From: Dehalococcoidia bacterium
GTDB lineage: Bacteria > Chloroflexota > Dehalococcoidia > Lucifugimonadales > CAUZJF01
Assembly: GCA_965248605.1 (NCBI GenBank)
Contig: CBDFJV010000006.1
Coordinates: 9,513-73,512, forward strand
Reading direction: 5' to 3'
DNA: 64,000 nucleotides
Under the pieces are notes generated by a model. That model had not been told where the DNA came from. It saw only the letters and a list, made by a program, of their open reading frames with translations, and made no database searches. Shown one piece after another: positions 14,641 to 61,227 of this stretch. The translations under genes were made by a program, and so were the position numbers. The stretch's first letter is position 1. The number at the start of each line of letters is the position of its first letter.

Positions 14641-14677
14641 ACGATTCTCCTCAGATTTGAACATCCAGGCTCATGTA

Positions 14678-16746: not shown

Positions 16747-16768
16747 GATTCAAGCATCCGAGCGGGCA

Positions 16769-16899: not shown

Positions 16900-16908
16900 G
16901 TCCATGTG

Positions 16909-18774: not shown

Positions 18775-18779
18775 GTGGG

Positions 18780-19091
18780 TCAGCCCCCCGCCTGGCTCGA
18801 GAACAGCAGCAGAGAATCGCCGTGCTTCAGGCGAAGCGGCCCTTTGTCAACAAACTCGCTTCCGTTCAGGTTCAGCATGAAGCTTTCGAGCAGCCCGGAG
18901 CGGTCCTCCCGGATTGCCTTGCCTACAAGCTCAGGGTGAGCATTCGCAAGCGTCCCTGCGATCTCAGGCACCGAGACTGTCGGGGGGACACGTAGTGACA
19001 CATGGCGCCGTCCGACCGTAAGTCTCGCCGAGCCGAAGAGCTCGACTCGTATCGTGACCAGTTCAATCGCGGTGTCCTTCACTTCAACCAA
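18780..19091 (-). CDS. moaD: MoaD/ThiS-family sulfur carrier
   Basis: A ~100-aa beta-grasp-sized protein ending in GG (..LLFSSQAGG*). Confidence 0.7.
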   Translation of the reverse strand: MVEVKDTAIELVTIRVELFGSARLTVGRRHVSLRVPPTVSVPEIAGTLANAHPELVGKAIREDRSGLLESFMLNLNGSEFVDKGPLRLKHGDSLLLFSSQAGG

Positions 19092-19740
19092 TCTTGGAAG
19101 CCTTCTGGGGTTCGCCAGGTCGGGATTCCCTTTCGGCGACCAAGGCCATCGCCCGGTCGAGGTCCCGCTGCGTGTTCACGTTGAAGAAGCTCAGGAGCTC
19201 AGGGTCGAGTCTTTCGACTTCAGGCTGTAGAACGTAGTTCACACGCACGTCGTCGAAAAACCGGGCGATCTTGAGGTCGCCGGCCTTCAGATACGGTTCG
19301 ATGTAGGTGAGACAGGCCTTGGAGTACACGGCGTGGGTCGGCTCCGGGCGGCCGTCAAGCTCAGGAACCGCTACGTCGAAGCCGTCACGCGAGGCCAGCA
19401 AATGCCTGAAAAGCTCAACGTTGAGGAAAGGCATGTCGCACGCAACCACGACCCCCCAATCGGCCTCCATCGCAGTCAGGCCCGTGAAGATGCCCCCCAG
19501 GGAGCCGCTGTCCGGATAGATGTCTACGGCAACTCTGGCATCTCCGCCGAGGGCCAGCTCGTCGGCCCTGGCCACGTTGTTGACGACCACCACGGTCCCG
19601 GCTGTAACCTCGGACAAGCGACGGATAACCCCATGGAGGAGCGGCTCGCCCCCCAGCGGCTCCATGGCCTTATCACGGCCCAGCCGCCTGCTCAGCCCTC
19701 CGGCCAAGACTATGCCCCAAGCGTCGGTTGGCGTATCCAT
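19084..19740 (-). CDS. mobA: Molybdenum cofactor guanylyltransferase
   Basis: GIVLAGGLSRRLGRDKA is the N-terminal nucleotide-binding motif of MobA. Confidence 0.8.
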   Translation of the reverse strand: MDTPTDAWGIVLAGGLSRRLGRDKAMEPLGGEPLLHGVIRRLSEVTAGTVVVVNNVARADELALGGDARVAVDIYPDSGSLGGIFTGLTAMEADWGVVVACDMPFLNVELFRHLLASRDGFDVAVPELDGRPEPTHAVYSKACLTYIEPYLKAGDLKIARFFDDVRVNYVLQPEVERLDPELLSFFNVNTQRDLDRAMALVAERESRPGEPQKASKIG

Positions 19741-19774
19741 AGCGTCTGGTAGGAGAGCGTAGCATAGTTCAATA

Positions 19775-21721
19775 CTAGCTGCTACCTATCTCAGCTACGA
19801 CCTCTCCCGTGCGAGTAGTGTCGTAGCCGCCCAAACCGTCCATCTGCTGTTTGAACGCCTCGCTCCTCACGAGTTCGAGCAGCGGCGCCAGCTGACTACT
19901 CTCGTAGAACTCGACGGGGATGACCAGGTCGTATTGCTCGTCCGCGAGGGGCACGAAGTCCAGCCCCAGTGCCCTGGCCGCGGACAGTACGCCGAGCCCG
20001 GCAGCTGCCCGACCGCCCGCCACTGCAGCGGCCACGGCGAGATGGGTATATTCCTCCCGCTCGTAGCCGTCTATCTGCTTCGCGCCGATACCGGCGCCTT
20101 TGAGCATGTAGTCGAGCAGCAGACGAGTCCCCGACCCTCGTTGCCGATTGACGAAAGTGACCCCCTTGCGGACAAGGTCTTCGAGAGAGGCAATCGACTC
20201 CGGATTGTCTTTCTGGACGATGAGTCCCTGAGTCCGTCCGGCCAGGCGCACGAGAATGACGTCGCGACCCTTGAGGTACCGCTTCACGTATGTCACGTTG
20301 TACTCGCCGGTTTCCTCATCCATCAGGTGACATCCCGCCAGATGGGCCTCTCCGCGCTTCAGGGCCGTGAGACCACCCAAGCTGCCGACGTTCGAGGAAA
20401 CCAGGCTCGCACCAGGATGGCGGCGGTGGATCTCGCTGGCGAGCAGGTCCAGCGATACGTCGTGGCTTCCGATAGCGACGATGGCGTGCTCGATTGCCTC
20501 GAGCGGTCTTAGAAGCTCAACCTCGACCTCTTCACCAGCGGCGATGCCTTCGGAGAAACGAGGGATCAGGGCGATGCCGTCCGCGCGCACTAGCGACATG
20601 ATAACTCCGGCGCCCCGCTGGACCGGCGTGGCTACCATTCTCTCAGCCACGACTCCCAGCCTCACCCGCAAGAACTCGTCCTCGCCCATCGGCGAGGAGA
20701 CCTTTCTGGTAACGGTCGCGGTGACCTTGTCTCGCCTTTCTACTGCGATCCCGAGCCGCGCTTCGATCAGCGGTCGGACGAAGAGCTCGCATGTCAGGGC
20801 CGCTGACACCGGGTAGCCAGGTATTCCTATGAATGGTTTGTCGTCGATGACCCCCAACACCACGGGGTGTCCCGGCCTGACGGCAACGCCGTGGACTACC
20901 AACTGACCCAGACCTTCGACGACCTTCGCCGTGTAGTCTTCCGAGCCTGCCGAAGACCCGGCGTTGACGACCACGATGTCGTACTTGCGGACGGCTTCGC
21001 GGACCGCTGCGGAGATCTGCTCGTAGTCGTCGGGCACCGGGTCCCATCGCGTGGCATGCGCGCCCCAGTCGTCGATCATCGCGGATAGCATCAGCGAGTT
21101 GGACTCGACGATTTCGCCCGGCCGCGCTTGAGACCCCGGCGTCACTAGCTCCGTACCAGTGGGGATCACGGCCAGTGTCGGTGTCCGCCGGACATCGACA
21201 CTCGAAAGGCCGGCAGCCGCGCATGCCGCCAGGTCCTGGGGTCGGAGGCGGTGATCGACCGGTAGGACCAGCTCGGTCGCCACTATGTCTTCGCCGAGCG
21301 GCCGAACGTGTTGGTATGGGGCAATAGGAGATTGGAGCTCGATAGTCGCCTCGTCGACCTGGTGGACGACCTCGACCATCGCGACAGCGTCGTAGCCATC
21401 GGGCATCGGGTCGCCGGTGTCGAGCCATATGGCCTGCTCGCCGACCTTGAGCCGGACCGGCGCCGTCTCGGTGGCCCCGACGGTTTCTCGCGACCTTACG
21501 GCGACGCCGTCCATAGCGGACGCATCGTAGTGTGGCGAGGAGGCTTTCGCCCACACCGGCTCCGCGGTAACCCGCCCGCTAGCCTGGTCTAATGGCACAC
21601 TCTCGCCTGGCGATCGCTCGAGCCAGCCTGCGTCCCGCAACGCCGCGTGAAACCGGGTAATGGCCTCGTCGAGGGGAATATCTTCGAGGTAGTAGCGGCG
21701 TTTCCGCGGAGGTTCAGGCAT
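19775..21721 (-). CDS. moeA: MoeA-type molybdopterin molybdo/tungsto-transferase fused to a C-terminal periplasmic-binding-protein-like domain
   Basis: MoeA domains occupy the first ~400 aa (..SPHYDASAMDGVAV.., GSSAGSEDY). They are followed by a ~230-aa PBP-like domain (..NRQRGSGTRLLLD..). Confidence 0.8.
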   Translation of the reverse strand: MPEPPRKRRYYLEDIPLDEAITRFHAALRDAGWLERSPGESVPLDQASGRVTAEPVWAKASSPHYDASAMDGVAVRSRETVGATETAPVRLKVGEQAIWLDTGDPMPDGYDAVAMVEVVHQVDEATIELQSPIAPYQHVRPLGEDIVATELVLPVDHRLRPQDLAACAAAGLSSVDVRRTPTLAVIPTGTELVTPGSQARPGEIVESNSLMLSAMIDDWGAHATRWDPVPDDYEQISAAVREAVRKYDIVVVNAGSSAGSEDYTAKVVEGLGQLVVHGVAVRPGHPVVLGVIDDKPFIGIPGYPVSAALTCELFVRPLIEARLGIAVERRDKVTATVTRKVSSPMGEDEFLRVRLGVVAERMVATPVQRGAGVIMSLVRADGIALIPRFSEGIAAGEEVEVELLRPLEAIEHAIVAIGSHDVSLDLLASEIHRRHPGASLVSSNVGSLGGLTALKRGEAHLAGCHLMDEETGEYNVTYVKRYLKGRDVILVRLAGRTQGLIVQKDNPESIASLEDLVRKGVTFVNRQRGSGTRLLLDYMLKGAGIGAKQIDGYEREEYTHLAVAAAVAGGRAAAGLGVLSAARALGLDFVPLADEQYDLVIPVEFYESSQLAPLLELVRSEAFKQQMDGLGGYDTTRTGEVVAEIGSS

Positions 21722-21773
21722 GCCGTCCAGGGTACGCCTGAATCACTTGGGGGCCGCGTCGCGAGACATCCTC

Positions 21774-22121
21774 TCAGGAGTCCAGTTGGCCCGCGACTTC
21801 GACCAACGGAGCATTCACGTGGGTTGTCGGACCTAGATCAACTGATACTGCGAACGAGCCGATACTTGCTCCGAACCATCTAACGGAATTCACCTGAGCG
21901 TGGGCGGAGGCCTTCTCTATAGCCGCCTGACGGATGTAAGCAGAGGTTTTCTGGCCTAGCCGTTCCGCGTAGTCGCCGATCAGTTCCAGGTCCTCTCTGC
22001 TGAATGCGACGGAAACCACCGCCCGCGCCTTCTTCTGGGGCGAGATGCGCTCAGCGCGTTCGTAGTCCCACTCCTCCGGCGATTCCAGATTTTCCGCTTC
22101 TTCCGCTTTCAAGCGTCCCAT
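21774..22121 (-). CDS. Ribbon-helix-helix antitoxin, BrnA-like
   Basis: AVVSVAFSREDLELIGDYAERLGQKTSAYIRQAAIE is a CopG/RHH pattern. It lies immediately downstream of the BrnT-like ORF, which matches the BrnTA gene order. Confidence 0.55.
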   Translation of the reverse strand: MGRLKAEEAENLESPEEWDYERAERISPQKKARAVVSVAFSREDLELIGDYAERLGQKTSAYIRQAAIEKASAHAQVNSVRWFGASIGSFAVSVDLGPTTHVNAPLVEVAGQLDS

Positions 22122-22123
22122 AT

Positions 22124-22405
22124 CTATCTCCTTCCTAAGTGGATGAGCTCACTCTCCTTGCAAGGCCAAGCTGTGATCGGCCTCCACACCGTCGGTTCGT
22201 GAGTGGGGACCGGCACCGCAATGCACTGGCCCCCGTGGTCCCTTCCTACCAGCAGATACAATCCTCTGCGGCGCCTCCGGTTTCGAACTAAAAAGTATTC
22301 GCTGTCGAGGATCTGCAACACTCGTCTGTACGATAGACGGTGCACGGAGAATTTCTCTTCGTTCACCTCGTCGAAGAGGAAACCCTCCACGACAGGGCTT
22401 GACAT
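22124..22405 (-). CDS. BrnT-like (DUF497) ribonuclease toxin
   Basis: A 93-aa protein. FLFDEVNEEKF...LYLLVGRD...VWRPITAWPCKESE parallels the F.WDE.K ... RIISAR.A...E pattern of BrnT. Confidence 0.55.
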   Translation of the reverse strand: MSSPVVEGFLFDEVNEEKFSVHRLSYRRVLQILDSEYFLVRNRRRRRGLYLLVGRDHGGQCIAVPVPTHEPTVWRPITAWPCKESELIHLGRR

Positions 22406-22469
22406 GCAGAATCTCCTACATCTAAACTACAGTATACTACATCTGTAGTGTTTCTTCGATAGGATACCT

Positions 22470-22877
22470 ATGAATATCGAATGGCTCATCCTCGCCGACG
22501 CCGCCGAAGTCAACGGAGGCAAGCTTTATTTGCTAGGAGGCGGCTGGAACCAGCTAACGGCCAACAAGTTCCCGTTCCCCCATAGCATGGCGATCGCAGT
22601 CTCATTCAAGGTCCCATGGACTCAGACCAATGAAAAGCACAGCTTTGAAATCGAAATCGCCGACTCAGATGGTCACTCTGTTGCCAAGGTTCCCGGCCAG
22701 TTCGAGGTGGGTCGTCCTGTCGGAGTTCCCGCCGGCCAGGACCAGCGGGCGCAAATCGTCGTGAACCTCAATTGGACTATCAACCAGGCCAGCGGGTACG
22801 CCGTAGCCGTCCGCCTAAATGGTGAGGAAGGCGGCCTCTTTCCGTTCAGCGTGGTCTCTGGTCCCAAGCAGGCCTAG
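22470..22877 (+). CDS. Hypothetical protein (135 aa)
   Basis: A clean ORF with a plausible ATG and coding-like composition. I cannot assign a family with confidence. Confidence 0.55.
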   Translation: MNIEWLILADAAEVNGGKLYLLGGGWNQLTANKFPFPHSMAIAVSFKVPWTQTNEKHSFEIEIADSDGHSVAKVPGQFEVGRPVGVPAGQDQRAQIVVNLNWTINQASGYAVAVRLNGEEGGLFPFSVVSGPKQA

Positions 22878-23149
22878 CGTCCGGGTTCGGGCGGTTACCT
22901 CGACCGGATGGCCTCGTCGAAGGCAATGAATACGCGGTGATCACCCGGGTTTATCTCGCTCCTCGTTTTTCCCCTCGAGGATAGTGTTCACGACCGGCGT
23001 AACGGACCCTATGGAATGGCGCACCATGTCCGCGACTGAATCTGCGAATTCCGAATCCAGGCTGTCACCGGTGCGCGTGTCGTCAAGAATAAGCCACCGA
23101 TCGTCTTCATGCACGTTGCCGAGCGGCTGTAATTTTTGCTTTAAAGCCA

Positions 23150-23280
23150 CTAGTAGACCGAAATCTTTGAAATGAGGGGTAGCCGAGATTGGCGTGCTAC
23201 GACGACAGGGCGGGTTTCAAACCCGCCCCTACCAAGCCGTAACCTCAGAACCCTTCAATACTAGGATGTTGGACCACTAG
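23150..23280 (+). repeat. 131-bp MITE-like repeat, copy 2 (first of a tandem pair)
   Basis: Full-length copy. Its right-hand CTAG (23277..23280) is shared with copy 3. Confidence 0.9.
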
Positions 23281-23407
23281 TAGACCGAAATTTTTGAAAT
23301 GAGGGGTAGCCGAGATTGGCGTGCTACGACGACAGGGCGGGTTTCAAACCCGCCCCTACCAAGCCGTAACCTCAGAACCCTTCAATACTAGGATGTTGGA
23401 CCACTAG
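23277..23407 (+). repeat. 131-bp MITE-like repeat, copy 3 (second of a tandem pair)
   Basis: Full-length copy with one visible substitution (GAAATTTTTG versus GAAATCTTTG). It overlaps the 3' end of the ORF at 23372..24373. Confidence 0.9.
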
Positions 23408-24373
23408 ATCCTCCGGGGAAAACCACCCTACCCTGTCGCTTTCATCGCGGTTCTTGACCTGGTCCCTCTTATCACACCGGAACCTTACCTTTACCTCGAA
23501 GGGCGCGGATTGAGTGGCTTTGGGAAGAAGTAACTGATACCTCATAGAGCTGTTACCCCATGGCGGCCATGAGTACCATAGTTGATAGTAGCGATTGACT
23601 GGGCCAACGCCCGCCCATCGACTCTTCCTGTCCGGTTTCAAGTCATCGGGGAGTTCCGCAAGGGCTTCAAAGGCCGCTGTTCTGAAGAAGCGCGTGACCT
23701 CATCAAACCGACCGCGTCCTGCCCGGTTCCTGGCCCGCCCGAGCGTGACATCGTCTACTCCTGGAATAGGCAGAATCGTGGTGGTCTGTATATAGAAACT
23801 GTCGCTGGCCTGGTCGCGGTAGGGGGTGAGCTGAACGCATGTAATCAAGGCTTCGCTCAGAGCTTTATCGTTCAACCACTGCACAGCCGACGTAACTTCT
23901 GGCGCGAACCTATGACTCGCCAAGACTATTCGCTGCTCGTTGTTTAGCCCTTCCAGGTCATCGGCGTCGATGTGTTCCTTTAGCTGAACAATCGCCTCTT
24001 CCTCGGAGACCTTGGCATGGGCGACGAGCATATCCACGATGTCATTCGGTTTCGCGTGCTGGAAGTAACTCGCGTATTTGATTGCCTGCCAGTGGACTTC
24101 TGATCCGCTATCGTCCCTTTTCAGTTCGATGACGACGACCCGGCCGTCGGTGTCCACGGCCACGATGTCCGGACGCTCCCGTGTCCTGTCGAATCCGCTA
24201 AACTCCTTTGCGATTACGAGGAGGTCTTCGCCGAGAATTGTGGGATGAACAACGATCCATTCCTGAATGTCGCTCCGTTCGCGGAATCCCGCTGCGGCGA
24301 ATTCGATCTCCGTCACCGCCTCCGCACTCTTCGCGGCCGGGTCGATCTTGAACAGATTGGGTCCAGTGCTCAT
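23372..24373 (-). CDS. PD-(D/E)XK nuclease-like protein (NucS/DUF91-like N-terminal domain plus an uncharacterised C-terminal domain)
   Basis: PDIVAVDTDGRVVVIELKRD is a D..E.K nuclease-core pattern like NucS. The last 11 codons (LVVQHPSIEGF*) are encoded by MITE copy 3. Confidence 0.55.
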   Translation of the reverse strand: MSTGPNLFKIDPAAKSAEAVTEIEFAAAGFRERSDIQEWIVVHPTILGEDLLVIAKEFSGFDRTRERPDIVAVDTDGRVVVIELKRDDSGSEVHWQAIKYASYFQHAKPNDIVDMLVAHAKVSEEEAIVQLKEHIDADDLEGLNNEQRIVLASHRFAPEVTSAVQWLNDKALSEALITCVQLTPYRDQASDSFYIQTTTILPIPGVDDVTLGRARNRAGRGRFDEVTRFFRTAAFEALAELPDDLKPDRKSRWAGVGPVNRYYQLWYSWPPWGNSSMRYQLLLPKATQSAPFEVKVRFRCDKRDQVKNRDESDRVGWFSPEDLVVQHPSIEGF

Positions 24374-24411
24374 AACCCCACTTCCATAGAAACAAAAGAT
24401 TGGCTGATGGC

Positions 24412-25644
24412 TCAGTACACCCGCACCTCGACCTCTTCCCCCGCGTAAAGCCCGCCTTTGTCCAGCGGAACGGTGACCGACCCCTCGGCACGGACTAAAG
24501 TGTAAATCAGGTTGGACTTCCCGAACAATGGCTCTGCACTCAAGACGCCGTTCTCGGTAAGCAGCCTCACCTGGACGTGGTCCTGGCGGCCGGTAACCGA
24601 AGGGATGTCGCGTTGGAGCCGCACCCTCACGGTGAGAGGCTCGGGCGGCGACGTGCAGCCAGCTAGCGCGTAGATCGTCAGCCGGACCACCATGTCGAAG
24701 ACCACCATGGCCGAGACGGGGTTCCCGGGCAGGCCGAAAGCCGGCTTGCCATTCAGCATTGCGATGAGCGTCGGCTTGCCAGGCTTGTGAGCGATGCCGT
24801 GCGCCAGCACTCCGGGCTCGCCCAGGTCGGCGAATACCTTGGCCGTCATGTCCCGGCTGCTTACAGAGCTACCCGCGGAAAACACAAGGACGTCCCCTTG
24901 CTCCAGGCCCTCGGAAGCAGCCGCACGCTGGGCCTCGAGGTCGTCGGGGACCACCGCGATGGGGACCGGTATTCCACCGGCCTGCGCCACCAGCGCGGAG
25001 ATCGTGTACGTATTGATGTCCCTGACCTGTCCGGGCCCGGGCGAGGAATCCGGGGCCACGAGCTCGTCGCCGGTCGAGACGATGGCCACTCGTGGCCGCC
25101 TCGCCACGTCGACGTCGGTGATGCCGAGCGCCAGCAACCCCCCAATGTCCTGGGGCCGGATGACCCTGCCCTGCCGGATGACGGTATCGCCCGCTCGCAC
25201 GTCCTCGCCCACCTGGACGACGTTCTCGCCGGGCGCCACCGGCCGCAGCACCTCGATGGTCGACTCGTCGACGGCCTGTGTGTGCTCGACCATCACCACG
25301 GCGTCGGCGCCATTCGCCAGCATCCCGCCCGTGTAAGCCCCCGCCGCCTGACCCGCGGAAAGCTCCACGTCCGGCGCCCTCCCCATGGCCACCTCGCCGG
25401 CAATCTCGAGATAGGCCGGCATACCTTCGGAGGCGCCAAAGGTGTCCGCCGACCGCACGGAGAAGCCGTCCATTGTCGATCGGGAGAACGCCGGGAGGTC
25501 CTCCGGGGAAACGACGTCGCGTGAGGTGACGCGGCCAAGGGCCTCGCTAGTGGGGACCTTCTCAGGCTCTACTGTCGCGTCCAATCGCTGGAGCACGATG
25601 TCCAGGGCCTCGGACGGCGGAAGAACGTTGAAAAACTCAGTCAT
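24412..25644 (-). CDS. moeA: Molybdopterin molybdenumtransferase MoeA
   Basis: FSRSTMDGFSV, GDELV and SAGSSVSSRD are MoeA motifs. The start is placed at the ATG at 25644 (MTEFFNVL); the longest ORF extends to 25779 through a hairpin repeat. Confidence 0.85.
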   Translation of the reverse strand: MTEFFNVLPPSEALDIVLQRLDATVEPEKVPTSEALGRVTSRDVVSPEDLPAFSRSTMDGFSVRSADTFGASEGMPAYLEIAGEVAMGRAPDVELSAGQAAGAYTGGMLANGADAVVMVEHTQAVDESTIEVLRPVAPGENVVQVGEDVRAGDTVIRQGRVIRPQDIGGLLALGITDVDVARRPRVAIVSTGDELVAPDSSPGPGQVRDINTYTISALVAQAGGIPVPIAVVPDDLEAQRAAASEGLEQGDVLVFSAGSSVSSRDMTAKVFADLGEPGVLAHGIAHKPGKPTLIAMLNGKPAFGLPGNPVSAMVVFDMVVRLTIYALAGCTSPPEPLTVRVRLQRDIPSVTGRQDHVQVRLLTENGVLSAEPLFGKSNLIYTLVRAEGSVTVPLDKGGLYAGEEVEVRVY

Positions 25645-25911
25645 AGTCGGTACGTCGGAAGGGCCCATTATAGCAAGCACCCAGGAGCAGCAACGGCTCA
25701 CCAGGGTTGCGACTAGACGTGCTGTCCGTCCTCTCGTAGGGGCGCATTGCGTGCGCCCGCTTTGGAGATCTGGGCACACAACGTATCCTGCACCTCCCTT
25801 ACCCGCATGAGGTACGCGCTTGCTGGTCGTGTCCTTTTGTTGTAGCCTGCGCCCGACCTACGGGAGCACTCGGCACATAGGACCGAACACCGCAAACAGA
25901 GGGGGATAGCC

Positions 25912-27098: not shown

Positions 27099-27770
27099 AT
27101 CGCGGTAGTCCTGGACTTCGACGGTACGCTTGTTCTCCAGGACGTCGGTGAGACACTGCTGGACGAGTTCGCCTCCCCCGAATGGCGAACGGAGGACGCC
27201 CACTTTCGTTCCGGTGCGATCTCGTTCAAGGATCTTATCCAGCGCGAGTTCGGCTACCTTCCATCTTCAAAACGGGATGAGATCGTCGGGTTCGCACTTG
27301 CCGAAGCATCCATTCGCCCCGGCGCACTGGACCTGGTCGACTTCTGCAGGGCCAAAAACGTTCCCCTGGAGCTGGTGTCAGGGGGCCTCGACCTGTACAT
27401 CACGCCTCTGCTGCACGAGTTTGGAATGGATGATATCCCCGTCCGGAGTTGGGTAGCCGACTTCGATCGAGGCGATTTCGTCGTCCCGACATATCCACCC
27501 GACGTCGAGGTCTGCGAGAGAGTCGGCGTCTGCAAGTGCTCCCGAGTCTGGCACTACCAGAAGAAAGGCTACACGGTCCTGTTTGCCGGCGACGGGTCTT
27601 CCGACCAGTGCGTTGTGGGCGAGGCAGATCGGGCCTACGCCCGCTCGTCGCTGGCGGCCTACTGCGACCGGACCGGCATCGAGTACACGCCATTTGAGAC
27701 ATTCGACAGAATTCTGGACGACCTCAGACTCGCGATCGCGGCACCGGTCGACGATGAAGGCGGGTTGTAG
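27099..27770 (+). CDS. HAD-superfamily phosphatase (MtnX-like); start codon unresolved
   Basis: The frame reads IAVVLDFDGTL (HAD motif I) ... GGLD ... FAGDGSSD (motif IV). This frame is open from 27045 but contains no ATG/GTG/TTG before 27375. Confidence 0.6.
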   Translation: MAVVLDFDGTLVLQDVGETLLDEFASPEWRTEDAHFRSGAISFKDLIQREFGYLPSSKRDEIVGFALAEASIRPGALDLVDFCRAKNVPLELVSGGLDLYITPLLHEFGMDDIPVRSWVADFDRGDFVVPTYPPDVEVCERVGVCKCSRVWHYQKKGYTVLFAGDGSSDQCVVGEADRAYARSSLAAYCDRTGIEYTPFETFDRILDDLRLAIAAPVDDEGGL

Positions 27771-29454
27771 TGCCGACGTCCAAGAGCTCCTATTCAGTCG
27801 TCGTCGATTACAACGTCCCCGCTACGATGCGCGACGGGACAGTCCTGCGCGCCGACGTCTACCGACCGAAGGCCCAGGGCAAGTACCCGGTCCTCGTCGA
27901 GAGGACCCCGTACAGCAAGGAGCGGGACCCAGACAAGGGCACCCGACTCTCAGAACGGGGTTTCGTATATGTTGCGCAGGACGTCCGCGGCCGATATGCG
28001 TCCGACGGCGAGTTTGGCGCCGGCTTCTTCCGCGCTGAGCACACCGACCCGGAAGACGGCTACGACACCGTCGAATGGGCCGCCGCCCTGCCCTATTCCA
28101 ACGGCAACGTCGGCACGGTCGGCACGTCATACGCCGGCTGGACTCAGATGGAGCTGGCCCACGCTCGACCTCCGAACCTGAAGGCGATAATGCCGCAGGC
28201 CATCGCGGCCAACCTCCTCGACCGCGAGATGAGCGGGGTGCTGCGGCTCGGTAGGGTCCTGTGGTGGAAATCAACACCCTCGCCCCAGACCAGCGCAGAC
28301 GCGCCAACGCGCCATCCGGCACCAGGGACACCGACGAAGCCGAAAGGCTCTGGGCCGAGCGGGACCGCAGCAAGTGGCTCTGGTTCCTGCCCCTCAAGGA
28401 CATCCCCGACGACGCGATGTTTGGGTTGGGGCCTCACTGGCGACACTGGCTCGACAACCACGCCGTCGACAACTTTAGGTTCGAGGCCAAGCACCGGGAA
28501 ATCGAGGTCCCAGCTCTCGTCACGACGGGCTGGTACGACCAGCAGATCGGCTCGATCAAGAACTTCACCGGAATGGTCGAGAATGCGGGAACGAAGCACG
28601 CCCGGACTAGTTCGCGGCTCATCGTCGGACCCTGGACCCACGTCGGGCCAGACTTCGGACGGACCATCGGCCGGCTGGACTTCGGCGCAGATGCGGCCCG
28701 GGACTACTACGATATCGTCGACCGGTGGTTCGGCCACTGGCTCAACGGCGATGGCACGAACCTCGACGACTGGCCCCGCGTCCAGCTTTTCGTCATGGGA
28801 GCGAACCGCTGGCGCTACGAGGACGAGTGGCCGGTCAAGGGCACCCGGTACACTGAATTCTTCATCCACGGCGGCGGCGGCCTCTCGAAGGAGCCACCGG
28901 GAGATGAACCGCCGGACGAGTACGTCTACGACCCAAGAGACCCGGTGATGACTCTTTACTCACCCGCCGGCCAGAGCGAGCCCCACGATCAGCGGCTTCT
29001 CGACGAGCGGACAGACGTCCTCAGGTACGCAACTCCGCCCCTGGAACAGCCGGTCGAGGTCACGGGACCCATTACGATGAAGCTATGGGCCGCGTCATCT
29101 GTACTGGACACGGACTTCGTCGTCAAGCTGATGGACGTCTGGCCCGACGGCTTCACCCAGGAGCTCTGTTACGGCATCGTGAGGGCGCGGTACCGCGAGT
29201 CGTTCGAGCAGCCGTCGCTACTCGAGCCGGGCCGTCCCTATGAATTCACGATCGCCGTAAACCCAACCAGCAACCTGTTCAAGACCGGCCATCGGATACG
29301 GGTCGACGTGTCGAGCAGCGATTTCCCGAATTTCGATCGCAACCACAACACGGCCGGAGACGACTACGCGGAATCGACGCTCGTCACGGCCAGACAGACC
29401 GTATTCCATGATCGGGAGCATCCATCCCGGATCATACTACCGGTAATGCCGTAA
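27770..29454 (+). pseudogene. CocE/NonD-family hydrolase (X-Pro dipeptidyl-peptidase S15-like), frameshifted
   Basis: ORFs 27770..28948 and 28261..29454 carry the N-terminal (..VAQDVRGRYASDGEF..GTSYAGW) and C-terminal (..GPWTH..) parts. The frames join with a 1-nt change near GGAAATC at 28266..28271. Confidence 0.75.
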
Positions 29455-38374: not shown

Positions 38375-39583
38375 GTGGAAGAAGCCAAGATATCGGTGTA
38401 CGGCGCGCCGTGGTGCCCAGACTGCAAACAGGCCAAGCAGTTCCTCAATGAGCAGCACGTCGCGTTCAACTGGATTGACGTCGACGAGGACCCGAAAGGA
38501 CTCGAATACGTCAAACAGACCAACGACGGTAAGCAAATCATCCCGACCATCGTGTTCGAGGACGGCTCGATTCTCGTCGAGCCAACCAACGCGGAGTTAG
38601 CGCGAAAACTAGGTATTAGCGCCCGGGCGAAGCGTCACTTCTACGACCTCGTCGTGGTGGGAGCCGGCCCGACCGGCCTGACGGCGGCAATATATGCGGC
38701 GAGAGAAGGGCTCGAAACCCTGATCGTCGAACGCAGCGGGATCGGAGGCCAGGCGGGTGTCACCGAGCGGATAGACAACTACCCAGGCTTTCCGGAAGGT
38801 GTCGGGGGCGCCGAGCTTGCGAAACTCATACAGCGTCAGGCCGACCGGTTCGGTGTAGAGATTCTACCGGCACAGTCGGTGACCAGGATCAAGACCGAAA
38901 TGCCCCAACCCTCGATCGAGACGGAGACCGGTGACGAGTACTGCACACGGGCGGTGTTGCTAGCCACGGGGAGCCGCTATCGTAAGCTCAATGTCCCTGG
39001 GGAGGACGACCTCATCGGCGCCGGGATACATTTCTGTGCGACCTGCGACGGGCCCTTTTACAAAGGCCAGGAGCTCGTGGTCGTCGGAGGCGGCAACAGC
39101 GGCATCGAAGAGGGGCTCTTCCTGACCAAGTTCGCTTCCAAGGTTACGGTGCTCGAATACGGAGACCGGCTCAAGGCAAGCAAGATCCTCCAGGAGAAGG
39201 CCGCTGGCCATCCAAAGATGGAGATACGGCTCCGACACACGGTCGAAGAGTTCAGAGGGAACGGCCGCTTGACCTCGATCGTCGTCAAAGACCTCGAATC
39301 AGGCGACGTCGAAGAGCTAAGACCGGGCGCAGCTTTCATATTCATAGGACAGCAGCCGAACACCGATTTCGTCCGCGGTGCTGTTGACCTCGATAAGTGG
39401 GGGTTCATCTCGACCGAGACAAACCTGGAGACCAGCCTTCCGGGGGTCTTCGCCGCCGGGGACGTCCGAGCAGGGAGCACCAAACAGGTCTGCAGCGCGG
39501 TCGGCGAAGGCGCCACGGTGGCGTTGATGATCAGGCAATTCCTCGAAAAGACCGAAGGCAGCCGTGGATACAGAGGGGACTAG
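38375..39583 (+). CDS. trxB: Glutaredoxin-like (NrdH/mycoredoxin-type) domain fused to thioredoxin-disulfide reductase
   Basis: The N-terminus reads VYGAPWCPDCKQAK. It is followed by VVVGAGPTGLTAA (FAD), the redox-active CATCDG and GGGNSG (NADPH). Confidence 0.85.
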   Translation: MEEAKISVYGAPWCPDCKQAKQFLNEQHVAFNWIDVDEDPKGLEYVKQTNDGKQIIPTIVFEDGSILVEPTNAELARKLGISARAKRHFYDLVVVGAGPTGLTAAIYAAREGLETLIVERSGIGGQAGVTERIDNYPGFPEGVGGAELAKLIQRQADRFGVEILPAQSVTRIKTEMPQPSIETETGDEYCTRAVLLATGSRYRKLNVPGEDDLIGAGIHFCATCDGPFYKGQELVVVGGGNSGIEEGLFLTKFASKVTVLEYGDRLKASKILQEKAAGHPKMEIRLRHTVEEFRGNGRLTSIVVKDLESGDVEELRPGAAFIFIGQQPNTDFVRGAVDLDKWGFISTETNLETSLPGVFAAGDVRAGSTKQVCSAVGEGATVALMIRQFLEKTEGSRGYRGD

Positions 39584-52423: not shown

Positions 52424-53620
52424 CTAGTCCTCAGAAAGCGCCCTGCTCGCGGCGGCAACACCCGCTCCCACGCCCACCTCGAAGCTTTGGCTAGGCAGTA
52501 TCTCCTCCAGTGCGGAGAGCAGTGCCAGCACGTCTTCGGATTTGCTCGAGTCGCCCATAAGACCGATGCGCCACACTCGCCCGGCGAACTCGCCGAGGCC
52601 TCGCCCGATCTCGATGTGGTGCTCTCGCAAAAGTTTCTGTCGCACAGAGGCGTCGTCGACCCCGTCCGGGATCCACACGGGGGTGATCTGCGCGAGACGA
52701 TAGTCTTCCGGCGCGACCAGGTCGAGCCCCAGCGCCTCCAGGCCGGCGCGAAGGGCAGCCGCGTTCCTCTCGTGCCGCTCGTATCTTGCCTCCAACCCTT
52801 CTTCGAGGATCATTCTGAGCCCTTCTCGAAGGCCCAGCAGCGCGCTGACCGGCGCTGTGTGGTGGTATACGTGGTCGAAGCCCCAGTAGTTGGAGATGAG
52901 TCCAAGGTCGAGGTACCACGAAGAGGGCTTGTGCTCTCTCGTCTTCACAATGTCGTGGCCCCTGGGGCTGAGAGCTGCGGGAGATAGGCCTGGAGGGCAC
53001 CCCAGACACTTCTGAGTGGCCGAGTAGCAGTAGTCGATACCCAACCGGTCTACGGTTACCTCGGAGCCACCCAGAGACGTGACCGCGTCCACCATGAACA
53101 ACGCTCCATGCTCTTCCGCAAGCGTGGACAGCCCCTCCAGCGGCTGCAGAATCCCGGTCGACGTTTCGGCGTGGACGGCTGCCACCAATTTGACCTTGGC
53201 GTGTTTCTTCAGCTCAGCTTCGAGCATCTCGGCCGGAAACGGCTGGCCCCAGTCGCTTCGCAGAGCGATGACGTCTGCTCCGACTCGACCGGCCATGTCG
53301 ACCATGCGCTCGCCGAAGAAGCCGCATACACAGATCACCACGGTGTCGTCGGGTTCGAGCAAGCTGCTCAACCCCGCCTCCATGCCCGCGGAACCCGTCC
53401 CGGACAGCGCCATCGTGAGGCTCTCTTCGGTCTGAAAGGGCGCCTTGAGGAGTTGCGAAATCTCGTCCATGATCAACAGGAATTCCGGGTCGAGGTAGCC
53501 GATCATCGGCGCCATCATGGCCTGGAGCACACGAGGGTTGGCGCTGCTAGGCCCAGGGCCCAGCAGAATCCGAGGCGGGACTACTGGCATCAGAGATTCC
53601 GGCGCGGTGACCTGGGTCAT
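52424..53620 (-). CDS. Class V aminotransferase (alanine-glyoxylate / serine-pyruvate type)
   Basis: LLGPGPS is near the N-terminus, the PLP lysine context is SATQKCL, and the length is ~400 aa. Confidence 0.8.
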   Translation of the reverse strand: MTQVTAPESLMPVVPPRILLGPGPSSANPRVLQAMMAPMIGYLDPEFLLIMDEISQLLKAPFQTEESLTMALSGTGSAGMEAGLSSLLEPDDTVVICVCGFFGERMVDMAGRVGADVIALRSDWGQPFPAEMLEAELKKHAKVKLVAAVHAETSTGILQPLEGLSTLAEEHGALFMVDAVTSLGGSEVTVDRLGIDYCYSATQKCLGCPPGLSPAALSPRGHDIVKTREHKPSSWYLDLGLISNYWGFDHVYHHTAPVSALLGLREGLRMILEEGLEARYERHERNAAALRAGLEALGLDLVAPEDYRLAQITPVWIPDGVDDASVRQKLLREHHIEIGRGLGEFAGRVWRIGLMGDSSKSEDVLALLSALEEILPSQSFEVGVGAGVAAASRALSED

Positions 53621-53783
53621 TGCTTTCCTGATTTGGGCGAAGCGGAATAGCGAGTATTATATATGAGGGCCCAGACACCAGTTTGGTCGTCCGCAACCAA
53701 TCCGCTGTCCATACGTTATCGTATGTATGGCGAGACGTATTTGACCTATTGTGTTTAGGCCAACTCGGAATAGGAAGAGGTGC

Positions 53784-53996
53784 ATGAATAAACTCCTGGT
53801 TCTGGTCGCGGGCGTCGGTCTGCTTGCGGCCGTGACGGCCTGCGGCGGCGCATCGACCGGCGAAACCGATAGTAAGGGACCTGACGCCGCGTCCCCGGCG
53901 GCTGCGGCTTCGACCGCGGACGCTCCCACCACTCAGACATCGCTGCCAGCGGCACAGGCCAGCCGAGACACCGCTTCCAGCGACGCGACCGCTAAG
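53784..53996 (+). pseudogene. 5' part of the IS-disrupted lipoprotein redoxin gene (signal peptide plus low-complexity linker)
   Basis: MNKLLVLVAGVGLLAAVTACGG is a lipoprotein signal, followed by an A/S/T/P/D-rich linker. The frame is cut by the IS1380 end at 53997. Confidence 0.75.
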
Positions 53997-55713
53997 CCCG
54001 AATCCACCGACGGACAGGGATGGACGACGTGAGGACAGCGGAAGGGGGTGAGGGAGTTACAGGCGTGATGATCCGGGCTCGAATTTGGGTAGACGGGAGG
54101 TTGGCGGGCGGTCTGCAGGCGCTTTTGGGGGCACCGATGGCGGCCTACAGTGGCTGTGGCGAGCCAGATGGCGGGATAGGACACGGCAAGAGGCGCTCGC
54201 GGACTGGGCTGGCGCGAGTTTGCGGGGACGTTGGGTTGGCTGGTGGGTCAGTGGCGGACGGGCTCCGTCAGGCTGGGAGTGGAATGGCTCGCAGTCGGGC
54301 CAGGGCGCGGCTGAACTGCTCCTCCCAGGGCCAGCGCCGGGGAAGCTGCAGGGTCAATCGGCGTGCCGAGCGGGTGATCCGTCCGGCCAAGGCAAAGACC
54401 CGTCGTCTGAGGGTCTTGGTGGTCACGATCTGCTGACCCAGGCCGATGCGGGCTGTCCAGCGGGCCAGGTTGTGCGCCATCACCTGTACCGCCAGCCAGG
54501 CGCCGTTGGCGGCGAAACGGCCCGAGGGGAGATGGTTCAGCCCCACGCCGTACTTGAGGTCGCGTATCGCATTCTCGATCTCGGCGTGACGGCGATGATC
54601 GGCCTCCAGTTCCAGCGTCTCCCCGTCCCGGTCGGTGATGAAGCCGTGATAGCTGTAGGTGGCGAAGAGAGCCAGTTGAGAACAGGGCGCCGGCTTCACC
54701 CGCCGGACGATGAGCCGTACCGGCGCGGCGTCCGCCTCGGCCTGGAACGGGGTGTAGGTGGTCTCGGCCACATCGGCGGCGCCGTCCATCCAGTAAGGAA
54801 TCGGCGTCCAGGCATCTTCGGGTATCGCCTCGATGAGATTCCGCAGGCGGGCGCGCTGGCGGATGGCGATGGAGAAGCGGACATCCATCCGGCGGCAGAC
54901 GCGACCACGGCGTGGGTATAGAAGCCGCTGTCGGCCCGCACCGTGAGTTGGCCCCTGGCTCCGCAGTAGCGCACCCGCCCCACCGTTTCACGCAGGAAGT
55001 GGGCAGCGCCGCGGGCGGTGTTAGCCCGGCCCTCGCGCAGGCGGGCCATCAGCACGTCGCCGGTGCCGGCGGCGACGGCCAGCAGCGGGTGATAGCCCCG
55101 CGCACCGGTGTAGCCGTGGTGGCGGGCGCCCTCCTTGGCCAGTCCGTAGGTCTCGCAGATCGTCGAATCAAGGTCGATGGTGAATGGTGCGTCGCCGGGT
55201 CCGGCACCGGCCTTCCAGACCCGGGCCAGCAACTCGCGGCTCACCCGGTCCAGTTGGCGGACATGGCCCCACCTGAAGCTGCGCAGGAAGGTGCCCAGGG
55301 TGGAGGGAGCCTTAGCCGTGAAACCGAGCACGCGGGCGGTCCCGCCGGCGCGCAGCACATCGGCGTCGTCGATGCAATCTCCGCCGGCTAGGGCGGAGGC
55401 CACCAGGGTCATCATCTTGTCGCCGGTGTTCGCCCGGCCCGGCGCGCCGCCGAGGTCGAGGTGCTTCCGGAGGAGTTGGGGCAGGCCAAGGCGCAGGGCG
55501 AGGGTGGCGGGAAGGATCAGCCCGGCATTGGCCACCAGGCGGTGGTCGTCGAAGGCGATTTGGATGCGGTCGGGGTGGTTACGTGGTAGCATCTATCGGG
55601 TGCTCCTTTTCTGGGACCGGTTTTCTGTTTCAAAACCATTATCCCAGATTCAGAGGCGCACCCTTTTGTTTCTTCAGCAGGCCTCCTACACGCCGTCCTT
55701 CGGTGGATTAGGG
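53997..55713 (-). mobile_element. IS1380-family insertion sequence with a 5-bp target-site duplication
   Basis: The terminal inverted repeats are CCCGAATCCACCGACGGACAG (left) and CCCTAATCCACCGAAGGACGG (right, reverse complement), about 18/21 matching. CTAAG is duplicated at 53992..53996 and 55714..55718. Confidence 0.85.
54268..55592 (-). pseudogene. IS1380-family transposase, single frameshift
   Basis: ORFs 54696..55592 and 54268..54888 together give an IS1380-type protein (..HRRHAEIENAIRDLKYGVGLNHLPSG..). The frames meet at ..THAVVA / VCRRMDVRF.., about nt 54900. Confidence 0.8.
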
Positions 55714-56369
55714 CTAAGACGGACGCCGAGATCACTGCCTCCGTCGAGGCAGCCGCCGCTGCTGAGATGCCGTCAGCCACCACCGAGGCTGCCGAGACGG
55801 CTGAGTCCTTCACCGGCACCGAATCCGGTGAGTCTGTCTCGGTGACGGCCGATGCATCGCCCCCGCCTGCAGCCGCGGTCGCGGAATCCACCGAGATCTC
55901 ATGGGAGGACCCGCGGCCGGCGGAGCGTGGCCACAACGTCGGCGACTTCGCCCCCGAGTTCACCATGAAGCTGGCCGACGGAAGTAAAGTAGCCCTGGTA
56001 GACCTGGTCAGCGAGTCCCAACCGGCCTTCCTGTTCTTCTTCGCCAAGTGGTGAGGGACCTGTCGCGCCGAGTTGCGGCGCATGAAGGCGACCTTCCCCG
56101 AGTACCCGGACAACGTGGCGTTGTACGCGGTCGGCGTAGACCCATTCGAGTCCCTATCTGAGCTTGAGGAATACCGGAGCGAACAGGGATTTCCGTTTCC
56201 TGTCGCCGTCCCGGAAGGCCGGATGCTCGTCGATCTGAGGGTCGTGCAACAATCGACTAAGGTCGCAATCGACGCCAGCGGGCGCATCATCTACCGCGAC
56301 GGGTACGGCCGGGACGGAGGAGACGGCTTCCGGGAAGTCTTCCTGGAACTCTCCGAGAGCGCTGGCTAG
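55714..56369 (+). pseudogene. 3' part of the lipoprotein redoxin gene: TlpA/ResA-like thioredoxin-fold domain with in-frame TGA at the CXXC position
   Basis: ORFs 55767..56054 and 56073..56369 share one frame. Read-through gives GDFAPEFTMKL..AFLFFFAKW-TGA-GTCRAEL..YAVGVD... The frame continues upstream to the IS junction. Confidence 0.7.
56061..56084 (+). promoter_or_regulatory. SECIS-like hairpin downstream of the in-frame TGA
   Basis: The stem is GCGCCG (56065..56070) paired with CGGCGC (56076..56081), and the loop is AGUUG. It can be extended by U-A, G-U and U-G pairs with a bulged C. The perfect stem begins 10 nt after the TGA. Confidence 0.45.
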
Positions 56370-56468
56370 TCCCCAAGACTCGGGCCGCTTGATGGCCCAC
56401 CACTATTAGGCTATCCTCCGAAATCGGCTGGAGCGCACCTCGCTTCACTGCCGAGCAGGAGGAACCCC

Positions 56469-57536
56469 ATGACTGAACCACGCCCTAGAGCGGCCGACCT
56501 CGGCGTTGAAGTCGGCATTCTCCCTCGCGGCGCTCACAACTCCATCACGGACGTACCCGAGGTCTCTGTCGGCCACGTGACACTGGTGGATGGCGACGGC
56601 CCGCTGAGAATCGGCGAGGGGCCGGTCCGGACCGGCGTCACGGCCATCCTTCCCCATCAATACAACGTCTTCGAGCGGAAGGTCACGGCTTCGGTCCACG
56701 TAGTCAACGGGTTCGGCAAGGCGGTCGGGTTCCTTCAAGTCGGCGAGCTTGGCGTGATCGAGAGCCCCATCGTGCTGACCAGCACCCTCAGCATCTGGCG
56801 CGCCGCCGACGCCCTGATCGATTACCTGGCGGAGCGCAACCCCGGCGTGTACTCCTTCAACCCCGTCGTCGGCGAGTGCAACGACGGGTTCCTTAACGAC
56901 ATCATCGGTCGGCACATCCGCCCCGAACATATTCTCGACGCGATATCCGGCGCCGAGTCGCCCAACACCGACGAAGGGAACGTCGGAGCCGGCACGGGGA
57001 TGACCGGGTTCGGCTGGAAGGGCGGCATCGGAACTGCGTCGCGGCTGTGCGAGGTAGCCGGCGCTCAGTACGCCGTCGGAGCGATGACCCTCACGAACAC
57101 CGGCGACCCGCGGGAGTTCCGCATCGACGGCGTTCGCATCGGCCGTCATCTGCTGCCCCCGGACGATAAGTACGACCCCACCGGCCGGGGTGGGTCGATC
57201 ATCATGGTAGTCGCCACCGACGCGCCGGTCAGCTCGCGCCAGGTCGGCCGAATCGGCAGAAGGGCCGCCCTAGGTCTGGCCCGCGCGGGCGGAATCGCGG
57301 ACCACAACAGCGGAGACTTCATCATCGCGTTCTCGAACGCCCAGGGACGTCCCGGCCTCGACGACGCCGATATCACACCTCTCATGCGAGGCGCCCTGGA
57401 GGCAACTGAGGAGGCGGTCATCAACTCGGTGCTCCGCGCCGAGACCATGACGGGCCGGGACGGCAACACCCGCCACGCGATCCCCATCGATCAGGTGCAG
57501 GAGATCCTAGCGGCGCACGGGCCGCCGAAGGGCTGA
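56469..57536 (+). CDS. P1/S58-family peptidase (DmpA-like aminopeptidase)
   Basis: GVTAILP, and GAGTGMTGFGWKGGIGTAS containing the self-processing/nucleophile region typical of DmpA/BapA. Confidence 0.8.
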   Translation: MTEPRPRAADLGVEVGILPRGAHNSITDVPEVSVGHVTLVDGDGPLRIGEGPVRTGVTAILPHQYNVFERKVTASVHVVNGFGKAVGFLQVGELGVIESPIVLTSTLSIWRAADALIDYLAERNPGVYSFNPVVGECNDGFLNDIIGRHIRPEHILDAISGAESPNTDEGNVGAGTGMTGFGWKGGIGTASRLCEVAGAQYAVGAMTLTNTGDPREFRIDGVRIGRHLLPPDDKYDPTGRGGSIIMVVATDAPVSSRQVGRIGRRAALGLARAGGIADHNSGDFIIAFSNAQGRPGLDDADITPLMRGALEATEEAVINSVLRAETMTGRDGNTRHAIPIDQVQEILAAHGPPKG

Positions 57537-59537: not shown

Positions 59538-59862
59538 GGACTCCCTCGGCTCGGCTACCAGGGTCTGCAAGTCAGTGTACACGATGGCTCGGCTCCTATC
59601 GGATGTCGAGAGACTTGCTGCAATACTAGGAGCCGTGGCTTGCCGTGCCGTGAAGAATCTTACGGAATGATTAAGGGAACTGGGGTGCGGGGTGCGGGGT
59701 ATTAGCCGTGCGGCAGGAACGACGGACCAGCCCTCGACAAGCGACGAAAAAATACCCTGTTGCAAACCGTCGCGTTCTGTCGCACCCACATAGGGGACCG
59801 ATCGGTCGATGCGACAGGTGGCCGTGATGTCAAGGTCTGTCTGGTTGTCATACAAGCCGCCG

Positions 59863-61227
59863 ATGTCTAGCGGTCCGATAAGGCGGTCGCAACTCATAGC
59901 TCCATTTGGCACAGGGGCTCTGACTGTTGTCCCTAACGGGACATCCTTGATCATTTGTGGCCTCGACTACTGGTATCAGAGCGAAGATGCCGACGGCGAC
60001 ACCACACTTGTCGACGTAGATGAGTTCAAGCTTGAAGAATGGCGTCTCCAAGGAGAACTAAACGTCACGCATTTTCGGCTGCCTCCCGATTGGAGGCTTC
60101 CTCGGCGCAGTGAATCTGGCGTGCCTAACATGAGGCTGGCCGTTCCGTCATTAAGATTCCCCACTTGGAACTTTTGCCCCAGTCCAAGATGCCGACGCCT
60201 CCAGGATTCCTCACTGTCTTTTAGGGGGCGAGACACGTGTACCTATTGTGACAACAACTCTTCTCGCCCCAGGCAGATTTCGCAAGTGCCATTTGTCGCA
60301 ATTTGTGACTATGGCCATATGCAAGACTTCCCGTGGAGGGAGTGGGCACATAGATCAGTGAACCCTGAGTGCGGAAAGCCGATGAAACTGTACTCCACAG
60401 GGGGTTCGTCCCTTGACGCGCAGCAGGTCGAATTCGATTGCGGCGCCAAGCGCAATCTGGCCGACGCTACAGAATACTCACCAAACAGAGACTCGACGCG
60501 GCTGAGTGACTCTCTTGATGACTCGGGCAAGTCTACCTATGCCGCGGCCTGATGCCGTGGAATGGCGACCTTGAGGGGGCCGGCTGCGATAGAAACCTCA
60601 GTGGGAGCCTGCGTGCAGCGTCGAATCTTTACTACGCCGCGGTCAAGAGCTCAATTTTACTTACCTCGGGAAACCGAAAGCGTGCCAGAATCTCTTATTC
60701 AGATCCTGGTCAATCAACCAGTTTCGGTGATGATCAATACCCTGCTAGACGCAGGAGTTCCGCCCGAGGATATTCCCGCGAACAGCCTGCGTAGCTCATT
60801 CCCGGACATCTTGGCTAGTTACGGTGATACGCAGATCTCTGACGCACTACAGTTGCTGCAATCCACTGACGATAGCGAGAATCCGGTTCAACCGGGCGAC
60901 ATTTCGGCCCTGGTGCCCGCTGATGAAACCGAGTTCAAAAGGGCAGAGTACTAAGTCCTGACCAAGGAGATGTCCACGCCGTATCTTCAGATCAAGAGTG
61001 GCAAGCGAGGTGATTATGAACCAATTGTTGCCACAATTTTCGAGGAGCTCATGCTTATCGAGAAGCTCCGAGAGACGCGAGCTTTTTACGGGTTCAACAG
61101 AGTATTTCCGACCGGACAATCGTCCCTACCAGACAGGATGTCGCTGAACTTTAGGCTTCTTGGCAGTCGGCGGTGCTGTCCTGGCCGACCTGAGCCTCGC
61201 CGTACTCTCACCAAGACGCTCTTGACC
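59863..61227 (+). pseudogene. Decayed gene resembling the N-terminal two-thirds of DrmB-like (DUF1998-associated, DISARM-type) proteins
   Basis: MSSGPIRRSQLIAPFGTGAL.., Zn-ribbon-like CPSPRC..CTYC, CDYGHMQDFPWREWAH, ..LRAASNLYYAAVKSS.. and ..KLRETRAFYGFNRV.. are readable only across two frameshifts (~60550 and ~60670) and an in-frame TAA at 60952. The sequence is visibly less GC-rich than its neighbours. The 3' end is cut by MITE copy 6. The family call rests on recollection of motifs. Confidence 0.4.

Follow-up and report, generated by a model that had tools for sequence, protein, structure and literature searches.

The locus described here lies in a 64,000-nucleotide stretch of DNA from a Dehalococcoidia bacterium of the Chloroflexota (contig CBDFJV010000006.1 of assembly GCA_965248605.1, positions 9,513 to 73,512), referred to below as the window. 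Two open reading frames (ORFs), 55767..56054 and 56073..56369, share one frame, and the sequence, the ORF list and the translation agree that the TGA codon at 56052-56054 is all that separates them. Translation across this TGA gives ...FLFFFAKW-[TGA]-GTCRAELRRMK..., and the read-through protein matches the Pfam family AhpC-TSA (1.7e-14) as well as Redoxin and Thioredoxin. An earlier interpretation, made from the letters without database searches (the sequence-only reading), took the TGA for a selenocysteine (Sec, U) codon in the place of the first Cys of the W-C-x-x-C motif of a TlpA-like redoxin. Alignments with PDB sequences bear out this placement: the TGA falls on the first Cys of the ResA WCxPC motif, and the best matches of the read-through protein to ResA structures reach 1e-11. 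We consider it highly probable that the locus is a selenoprotein gene for a membrane-anchored, extracytoplasmic ResA/TlpA-like thiol-disulfide oxidoreductase with Sec as the nucleophile (U-G-T-C), and that the copy in the window is interrupted by an insertion sequence (IS).

The gene begins well upstream of the two ORFs. Alignment with relatives shows that an IS interrupts it after codon 71, and position 55714, where the piece presented here starts, is the first base past the right end of this element (Table 1). The 5' fragment encodes the signal peptide MNKLLVLVAGVGLLAAVTAC, the lipobox VTAC and the start of a linker rich in Ala, Thr, Ser and Pro; the 3' fragment, which is 95% identical to the related loci L002 and L001 along its whole length, encodes what remains of the linker, then the thioredoxin-fold domain containing Sec183-Gly-Thr-Cys186. 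The homologue P0004 (89% identical) starts with MNRLLVLVAGVGLLAAVTAC and stops at ...FFFAKW, and the same N-terminus is encoded in the window from 53784. Once the IS and one copy of its target-site duplication (TSD) are removed in silico, the gene has 287 codons, with Sec183 and Cys186 in place. L002, L004/L128, L129, L130 and L131 carry the gene without interruption, and the empty insertion site in L128 reads ACCGCTAAAACGGACG. The intact gene is called as an ORF of 182 amino acids and one of 95 amino acids, and such pairs are seen in L128-L131.

Table 1. Features of the interrupted gene, of the inserted element and of the hairpin after the TGA; stem pairs are numbered by alignment column (A5 columns).
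Feature	Position	Strand	Details and basis
5' gene fragment, codons 1-71	53784..53996	+	aligns with the N-terminus of intact P0004/L002
Left copy of 5-bp TSD	53992..53996	.	CTAAG; junction sequences
IS1380-family insertion sequence	53997..55713	-	1717 bp, 19-nt terminal inverted repeats; Pfam DDE_Tnp_1_4, inverted repeats, TSD
Right copy of TSD	55714..55718	.	CTAAG; junction sequences
3' gene fragment, codons 72-287 and TAG stop	55719..56369	+	Pfam and PDB matches
TGA, probable Sec codon	56052..56054	+	residue 183 of the reconstructed protein; nucleophilic first Cys place of CxxC; TGA in 93 gene copies
TGT, resolving Cys186 of U-x-x-C	56061..56063	+	TG[TC] invariant, 57/57 distinct sequences
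Hairpin, candidate bacterial SECIS, 17 nt	56065..56081	+	stem 56065-56070/56076-56081, loop AGUUG 56071-56075; covariation
Stem pair 16:28			GC to UA in 17 sequences
Stem pair 18:26			CG to UA in 7 sequences
Stem pair 14:30			GC to CG or UA in 3 sequences
Stem pair 15:29			CG to UA in 1 sequence

The locus was judged by the Sec/Cys-pair and Sec insertion sequence (SECIS) criteria of Zhang, Gladyshev and colleagues. For comparison, 120 loci were gathered by scans of GTDB species genomes and Joint Genome Institute (JGI) metagenomes with an alignment of the domain. The codon homologous to the TGA is also TGA in at least 93 gene copies, drawn from Dehalococcoidia/SAR202 genomes and from metagenomes of marine origin; the 36 nt downstream exist in 57 distinct versions. 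Where the Sec form has a named source genome (11 cases), this is always a metagenome-assembled genome (MAG) of Chloroflexota/Dehalococcoidia/SAR202. The TGA copies are mostly 41-57% identical in protein sequence to the window; L004 is 96% identical and places the source organism in the Dehalococcoidia. The codons around the TGA vary (W-U-GT-C, -PT-, -PV-, -AV-, -ST-, -RT-, T-U-SI-C and W-U-PD-C), which indicates that selection, and not mere inheritance, keeps the TGA. Cys codons (TGC or TGT) occupy the position in a few relatives within the clade (P0001-3 and L008) and in the distant loci L015-L023, at no more than 38% identity. The sequence-only reading had allowed that close relatives might carry TGC or TGT here; the intact genes of close relatives are instead among those that keep the TGA. 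In a separate search, run as a check because the scan patterns were not neutral towards Sec or Cys, the C-terminal half (window 56055-56366) was compared with 1.84 billion cluster representatives, giving 193 matches at E <= 1e-3. Among the best 150 of these, 39 contain CxxC and 96 are short ORFs that start just past the motif, typically at the Met of RRMK. Such short ORFs are the signature of split Sec genes.

The hairpin that had been proposed to follow the TGA, GCGCCG-AGUUG-CGGCGC, is present as described, and 10 nt separate its stem from the TGA; it is predicted by RNAfold and lies within the coding sequence for (R)AELRR. Across the 57 distinct sequences about 98% of the cells of the 6-bp stem are paired, and compensatory changes occur at four of the six pairs (Table 1). 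On each of five measures none of 500 column shuffles attains the observed value, and the pairing collapses when the 3' partner is slid by 1-3 columns. Several of the compensations are non-synonymous on both arms: R-A-E-L-R-R (CGC GCC GAG UUG CGG CGC) becomes R-S-E-L-R-S (CGC UCC GAG UUA CGG AGC), so that Ala GCC with Arg CGC is replaced by Ser UCC with Ser AGC. Elsewhere GCU pairs with CAG (Gln), and one sequence has Arg AGA, which keeps the U-A pair. This is a clean case of RNA structure constraining protein sequence. The G-U-U of the loop is invariant within the consensus AGUUR, and the Leu codon of the loop is UUR in 74/74 distinct sequences, while 23% of the other Leu codons of the same genes are UUR. 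In the Cys forms within the clade the stem is mismatched or the loop reads GCU, a decay that is expected where the constraint is lifted.

In bacterial SECIS elements the UGA and the apical loop are separated by 16-37 nt (PMC10778597), and the small apical loop contains a G (PMC1088965). The apical loop of the present hairpin starts 16 nt after the UGA and has the G, so the SECIS-like geometry that had been suggested for it holds. About 580 kb (the window and the loci) were scanned on both strands for a TGA and, after it, a stem of 6 bp or longer capped by an N-GUU-N loop, with the whole lying in an open reading frame. This finds 82 sites; all 82 are in this Sec-redoxin family and none is elsewhere, so the signal exceeds chance. 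The extension of the stem to 56061..56084 that had also been put forward does form in the window. It is not conserved: only 14 of the 57 sequences form pair 12:31, and the remaining two pairs are wobbles that show no variation. Like the E. coli fdhF-type SECIS, the element lies in the coding region right after the UGA, has the apical-loop G-U and keeps to the 16-37 nt range; it differs in consisting of a 6-bp stem and a 5-nt loop only, with no conserved bulged U or lower stem. Judged by sequence comparison, the hairpin is a genuine, minimal SECIS.

Two sets of relatives show variants of this arrangement. In L124/L125 (ENA ERZ25766727 and ERZ28763718) the Cys homologue P0001 is found in the samples of the Sec form, in a different genome (5.45-Mb contig); the same IS type borders its locus too, and there is one mismatch in its hairpin. 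L011 (159-611, 1021-1440) and L012 (3001-3438, 3845-4264), from two Dehalococcoidia MAGs, each carry two tandem Sec paralogues with W-U-P-D-C-R-S-A-L-R, in which the hairpin is longer by a C-G pair closing a GUU triloop.

Selection acts alike on the two sides of the TGA. The median pairwise ratio of non-synonymous to synonymous substitution rates (dN/dS) is 0.32 over the 30 codons upstream and 0.31 over the 40 codons downstream, and between the window and L002 it is 0.146 over 104 codons downstream of the TGA. Coding constraint is thus found on both sides, and one continuous thioredoxin fold spans the codon. By these substitution ratios the downstream region is translated, under purifying selection equal to that upstream. 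The stop codons of the 33 Pfam-supported genes in the window are TAG in 15, TAA in 10 and TGA in 8, TGA being the rarest despite a G+C content of about 61%. Because TGA is an ordinary stop in these 8 genes, UGA is not globally reassigned here.

The fold was assessed on an AlphaFold model of P0001, a Cys homologue 50% identical to the window protein (pLDDT, the predicted local distance difference test score, about 88-91 over the domain). The top PDB matches of this model are ResA, CcmG, Etrx lipoproteins and SdbA (TM-score 0.8-0.86, root-mean-square deviation about 2 A), and helix 1 begins one residue after the Sec/Cys position, which puts that position at the N-terminus of the helix. By these matches the model fits the TlpA/ResA/CcmG-like family cd02966, characterised by a thioredoxin fold that bears a beta-hairpin at its N-terminus and an insertion in the middle, and W-U-G-T-C falls on the WCxPC active site with Sec for the first Cys. 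The cis-Pro of cd02966 is absent: in the HMMER sequence alignment it is replaced by Ser (QQSTK, window about 56247-56261) in 61/61 distinct Sec forms. The Sec forms have Ser-Thr on the cis-Pro-Thr of ResA, and the Pro is kept in about half of the distant Cys homologues. No NCBIfam model passes its cut-off for the protein (43.4 bits against 170 for ResA, 30.9 against 123 for DsbE and 27.9 against 210 for StoA). Nearly all members carry a lipoprotein signal (lipobox) or a basic stretch with a transmembrane anchor, followed by a low-complexity linker. An extracytoplasmic location is indicated by these family-wide anchors and by the VTAC lipobox of the 5' fragment, and the window encodes Lgt. Taken together, the modelled fold and the lipobox or transmembrane anchors mark the protein as a thiol-disulfide oxidoreductase that is tethered to the membrane outside the cytoplasm and has a U-x-x-C centre.

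In the source genome the gene is most likely inactivated, because the IS uncouples the signal peptide from the catalytic domain. This agrees with the suspicion, voiced in the sequence-only reading, that an IS had inactivated the gene; what the element parts is the lipoprotein signal peptide and the catalytic domain. The element has the hallmarks of the IS1380 type, namely a DDE_Tnp_1_4 transposase, terminal inverted repeats, a short TSD and multiple copies at different sites: copies with 97% identity lie at other sites in L001/L002, and the TSDs of other copies, 5 bp each, are TTTAG, CTAAT and CTTAG. Its length (about 1.7 kb) and the 5-bp duplication are also those of IS1380 family members such as ISEcp1; it differs in its frameshifted transposase, and the family assignment rests on Pfam. 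Comparison with three other copies shows that a deletion of 1 nt near 54900 splits the transposase gene (minus strand, 54268..55592). The window copy is probably not produced as a functional exported protein, and most likely represents a recently inactivated selenoprotein gene in which the UGA and the SECIS are still intact.

The 3' fragment might still be expressed, from the ATG at 55767 and a transcript that begins in or near the IS end, as a cytoplasmic, unanchored Sec-redoxin. This fragment has no further lesions, the ATG is in frame, and in several relatives this IS end is found 30 nt before the intact gene, where it may supply a promoter. Against this, no sigma-70-like promoter was found in a scan of 53600-56500, a ribosome-binding site is not obvious, and the family is otherwise always exported. 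We regard continued expression as improbable. The scan for promoters and terminators around the gene was uninformative.

The same IS type is found at two other places near the gene in close strains. In L001, L002, L129, L130 and L131 it precedes the start codon by 30 nt (TSD TTTAG), and in L004/L128 it lies inside the downstream S58 peptidase gene (TSD CTTAG). With the insertion in the window (CTAAG), one IS1380-type element thus occupies three places in close strains, which makes the locus an IS hot spot. The 20-kb flanks of the relatives hold many more IS copies, of the IS1595, IS256 and IS630 types.

If the UGA is decoded, the amino acid inserted could in principle be another than Sec, either by a lineage-wide reassignment to Trp or Gly or by near-cognate read-through (Trp or Cys) stimulated by the hairpin. 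Stop-codon read-through stimulated by downstream structures occurs in other systems, and the window and the fetched loci contain no Sec machinery. Such decoding is nevertheless very unlikely, as TGA terminates 8 of the 33 well-supported window genes, the TGA coincides exactly with a redox-active position at which homologues have Cys, the hairpin matches a bacterial SECIS in where it lies, in its size and in the G-U of its loop, and the class Dehalococcoidia includes very selenoprotein-rich genomes. The Chloroflexi include Sec users (PMC1794560), and the ten bacteria richest in selenoprotein genes in BSepDB include two Dehalococcoidia MAGs, which have 49 and 46 of them (PMC13326102); the isolate-naming scheme of one of these MAGs is also that of L004, L006, L009, L010, L013 and L014. 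Sec decoding in the source organism would be in keeping with these relatives.

Two further explanations can be set aside almost entirely. That the TGA is a nonsense mutation in an IS-killed gene, and the hairpin a chance GC-rich stem, would suit the interruption of the window gene and the unremarkable energy of the hairpin, but this is excluded because uninterrupted copies (L002, L004/L128, L129, L130) share the TGA, as do the uninterrupted gene of L131 and about 90 more distant copies, and because the hairpin covaries and the downstream region is under purifying selection. That each half is a gene of its own, the first for a lipoprotein stub that ends at Trp and the second for a small protein, with a regulatory or terminator-like hairpin between them, follows the gene callers, whose ORFs have 182 and 95 amino acids, yet is hardly credible, since the split would cut one thioredoxin fold mid-way inside its active-site motif, a conserved start codon past the TGA is missing from many relatives, and selection pressure is equal on both sides.

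Several results weigh against a Sec-decoded, SECIS-dependent redoxin. The energy of the hairpin is unexceptional for a GC-rich sequence (z = -0.92), so the case for a SECIS rests on the comparative evidence, and the Rfam SECIS models give no match, with only noise in a relaxed-threshold search of 56030-56130. No selA, selB, selD or tRNA-Sec was detected in the window or the fetched loci (about 600 kb) with ARAGORN, Rfam and tblastn using E. coli SelA, SelB and SelD as probes; Pfam likewise finds no SelA, SelB or SelD domain in 39 window ORFs. The patterns used in the scans were not neutral, as the metagenome pattern CR[AST]ELRR[ML]K is the SECIS-encoded peptide and one genome pattern contained WC, and the ratio of Sec to Cys forms among the loci is biased for this reason. 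The Ser in the place of cis-Pro, as read from the alignment, may mean that the chemistry differs from that of ResA/TlpA. Among 59 flanking ORFs Pfam identifies no conserved partner, TPR proteins being found in one subclade only; the gene neighbourhood is unconserved and thus lends no contextual support to a substrate or electron donor.

The selenoprotein gene could work as follows. In intact copies the ribosome would arrive at the UGA with the 17-nt hairpin 10 nt downstream, where SelB, the elongation factor specific for Sec, may bind the G-U of the loop while carrying Sec-tRNA(Sec). Sec would then be inserted, and the hairpin unwound and translated as R-A-E-L-R-R. The product would be lipid-anchored through Cys20, with a low-complexity linker of about 110 residues leading to a thioredoxin-fold domain that presumably cycles between the selenol/thiol and selenenylsulfide states. 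It may reduce disulfides or oxidised residues in proteins outside the cytoplasmic membrane, and by analogy with ResA, CcmG and Etrx it could be recharged by a membrane electron carrier of the CcdA/DsbD type. In the source genome the 1717-bp IS1380-type element after codon 71 would have put an end to this function.

UxxC thioredoxin-fold proteins, which the sequence-only reading had cited as an established class of selenoproteins, have indeed been documented since 2005, when a 'Prx-like protein' and a 'Thiol-disulfide isomerase-like protein' were described from the Sargasso Sea (PMC1088965), and a 2026 review lists them as families of PF00578 and of cd02966, the TlpA-like type (PMC13188914). 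The present clade shares with the TlpA-like members and with the 'Prx-like thiol:disulfide oxidoreductase' (PF00578, UxxC) Sec for the first Cys of CxxC in a thioredoxin-fold redoxin, matches to PF00578/PF08534, a marine uncultured source, a SECIS right after the UGA and Cys homologues. It is likened to the UxxC families (MGB1650493.1, WP_010940744.1) by description and not by reference sequences, and differs from them in its restriction to Dehalococcoidia/SAR202, the lipoprotein or transmembrane anchor, the long low-complexity linker and the Ser at the ResA cis-Pro. With ResA, CcmG (DsbE), TlpA and Etrx it has in common the fold (TM-score 0.8-0.86 to ResA), the W-C-x-x-C position and the membrane-tethered, extracytoplasmic location. 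In contrast to these, it has a Sec nucleophile and Ser for cis-Pro, scores far under the ResA, DsbE and StoA cut-offs, and adjoins no cytochrome c maturation, CcdA or Msr gene. The clade fits the known UxxC thioredoxin-fold kind, of which it is a misannotated member.

It is conceivable, if rather doubtful, that the Dehalococcoidia/SAR202 clade forms a distinct uncatalogued subfamily, an exported lipid- or transmembrane-anchored Sec-redoxin with Ser for cis-Pro and a 17-nt SECIS in R-A/S-E-L-R/Q-R/S. If so, the NCBIfam and Rfam models would miss the clade, leading to its systematic annotation as two ORFs, and the position of the SECIS inside a coding peptide would let RNA pairing dictate amino-acid covariation.

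As a misannotated member of the UxxC kind, the Sec-redoxin is common in marine Dehalococcoidia and is routinely annotated as two ORFs. The two 'hypothetical' ORFs of the window, and about 100 similarly split public ORFs, can be recast as one exported selenoprotein. The hairpin provides a compact, covariation-backed SECIS model for marine Dehalococcoidia, which could improve the annotation of the SAR202 selenoproteome. The general picture of selenoprotein biology is unchanged, as UxxC thioredoxin-fold selenoproteins and Sec-rich Dehalococcoidia were already documented.

The window contains no credible candidate for a second selenoprotein among 151 in-frame TGA sites with open frames on both sides and in unannotated gaps. 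A Grx-TrxR fusion (38375-39583) was rejected, its CPDC motif being a Cys form; some bacteria have selenoprotein versions of such Grx-like domains. Read-through at 59809-60552 was rejected as a Sec codon on account of an ATGA stop/start overlap. A Zn-finger-rich ORF without a Pfam match (59809-60951) ends in TGA with an open frame behind it; this TGA overlaps the ATG of the next ORF in another frame, and the G+C content at 60-62 kb is lower (0.56). The FdsA-like formate dehydrogenase is a Cys form according to the sequence-only reading. It belongs to a cluster of molybdo- or tungsto-enzyme genes (10471-25779), together with a NuoF-like subunit, an aldehyde:ferredoxin oxidoreductase and two MoeA proteins, of which one carries a fused periplasmic-binding-protein-like domain. 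Small ORFs resembling a RelE/ParE-type toxin and its antitoxin were recognised by eye at about 14093-14660 on the minus strand, between the FdsA-like gene and the NuoF-like one.

Other features of the window concern mobile elements and broken genes. At 1038-3316 there is an IS21-like pair, whose first ORF has the C-terminal domain of a Mu transposase and whose second is an IstB ATPase. An S15 X-Pro dipeptidyl-peptidase (27770-29454) is divided into two overlapping ORFs, one with the N-terminal and one with the C-terminal domain. This split peptidase and the split IS transposase are either true pseudogenes or indel errors of long-read assembly.

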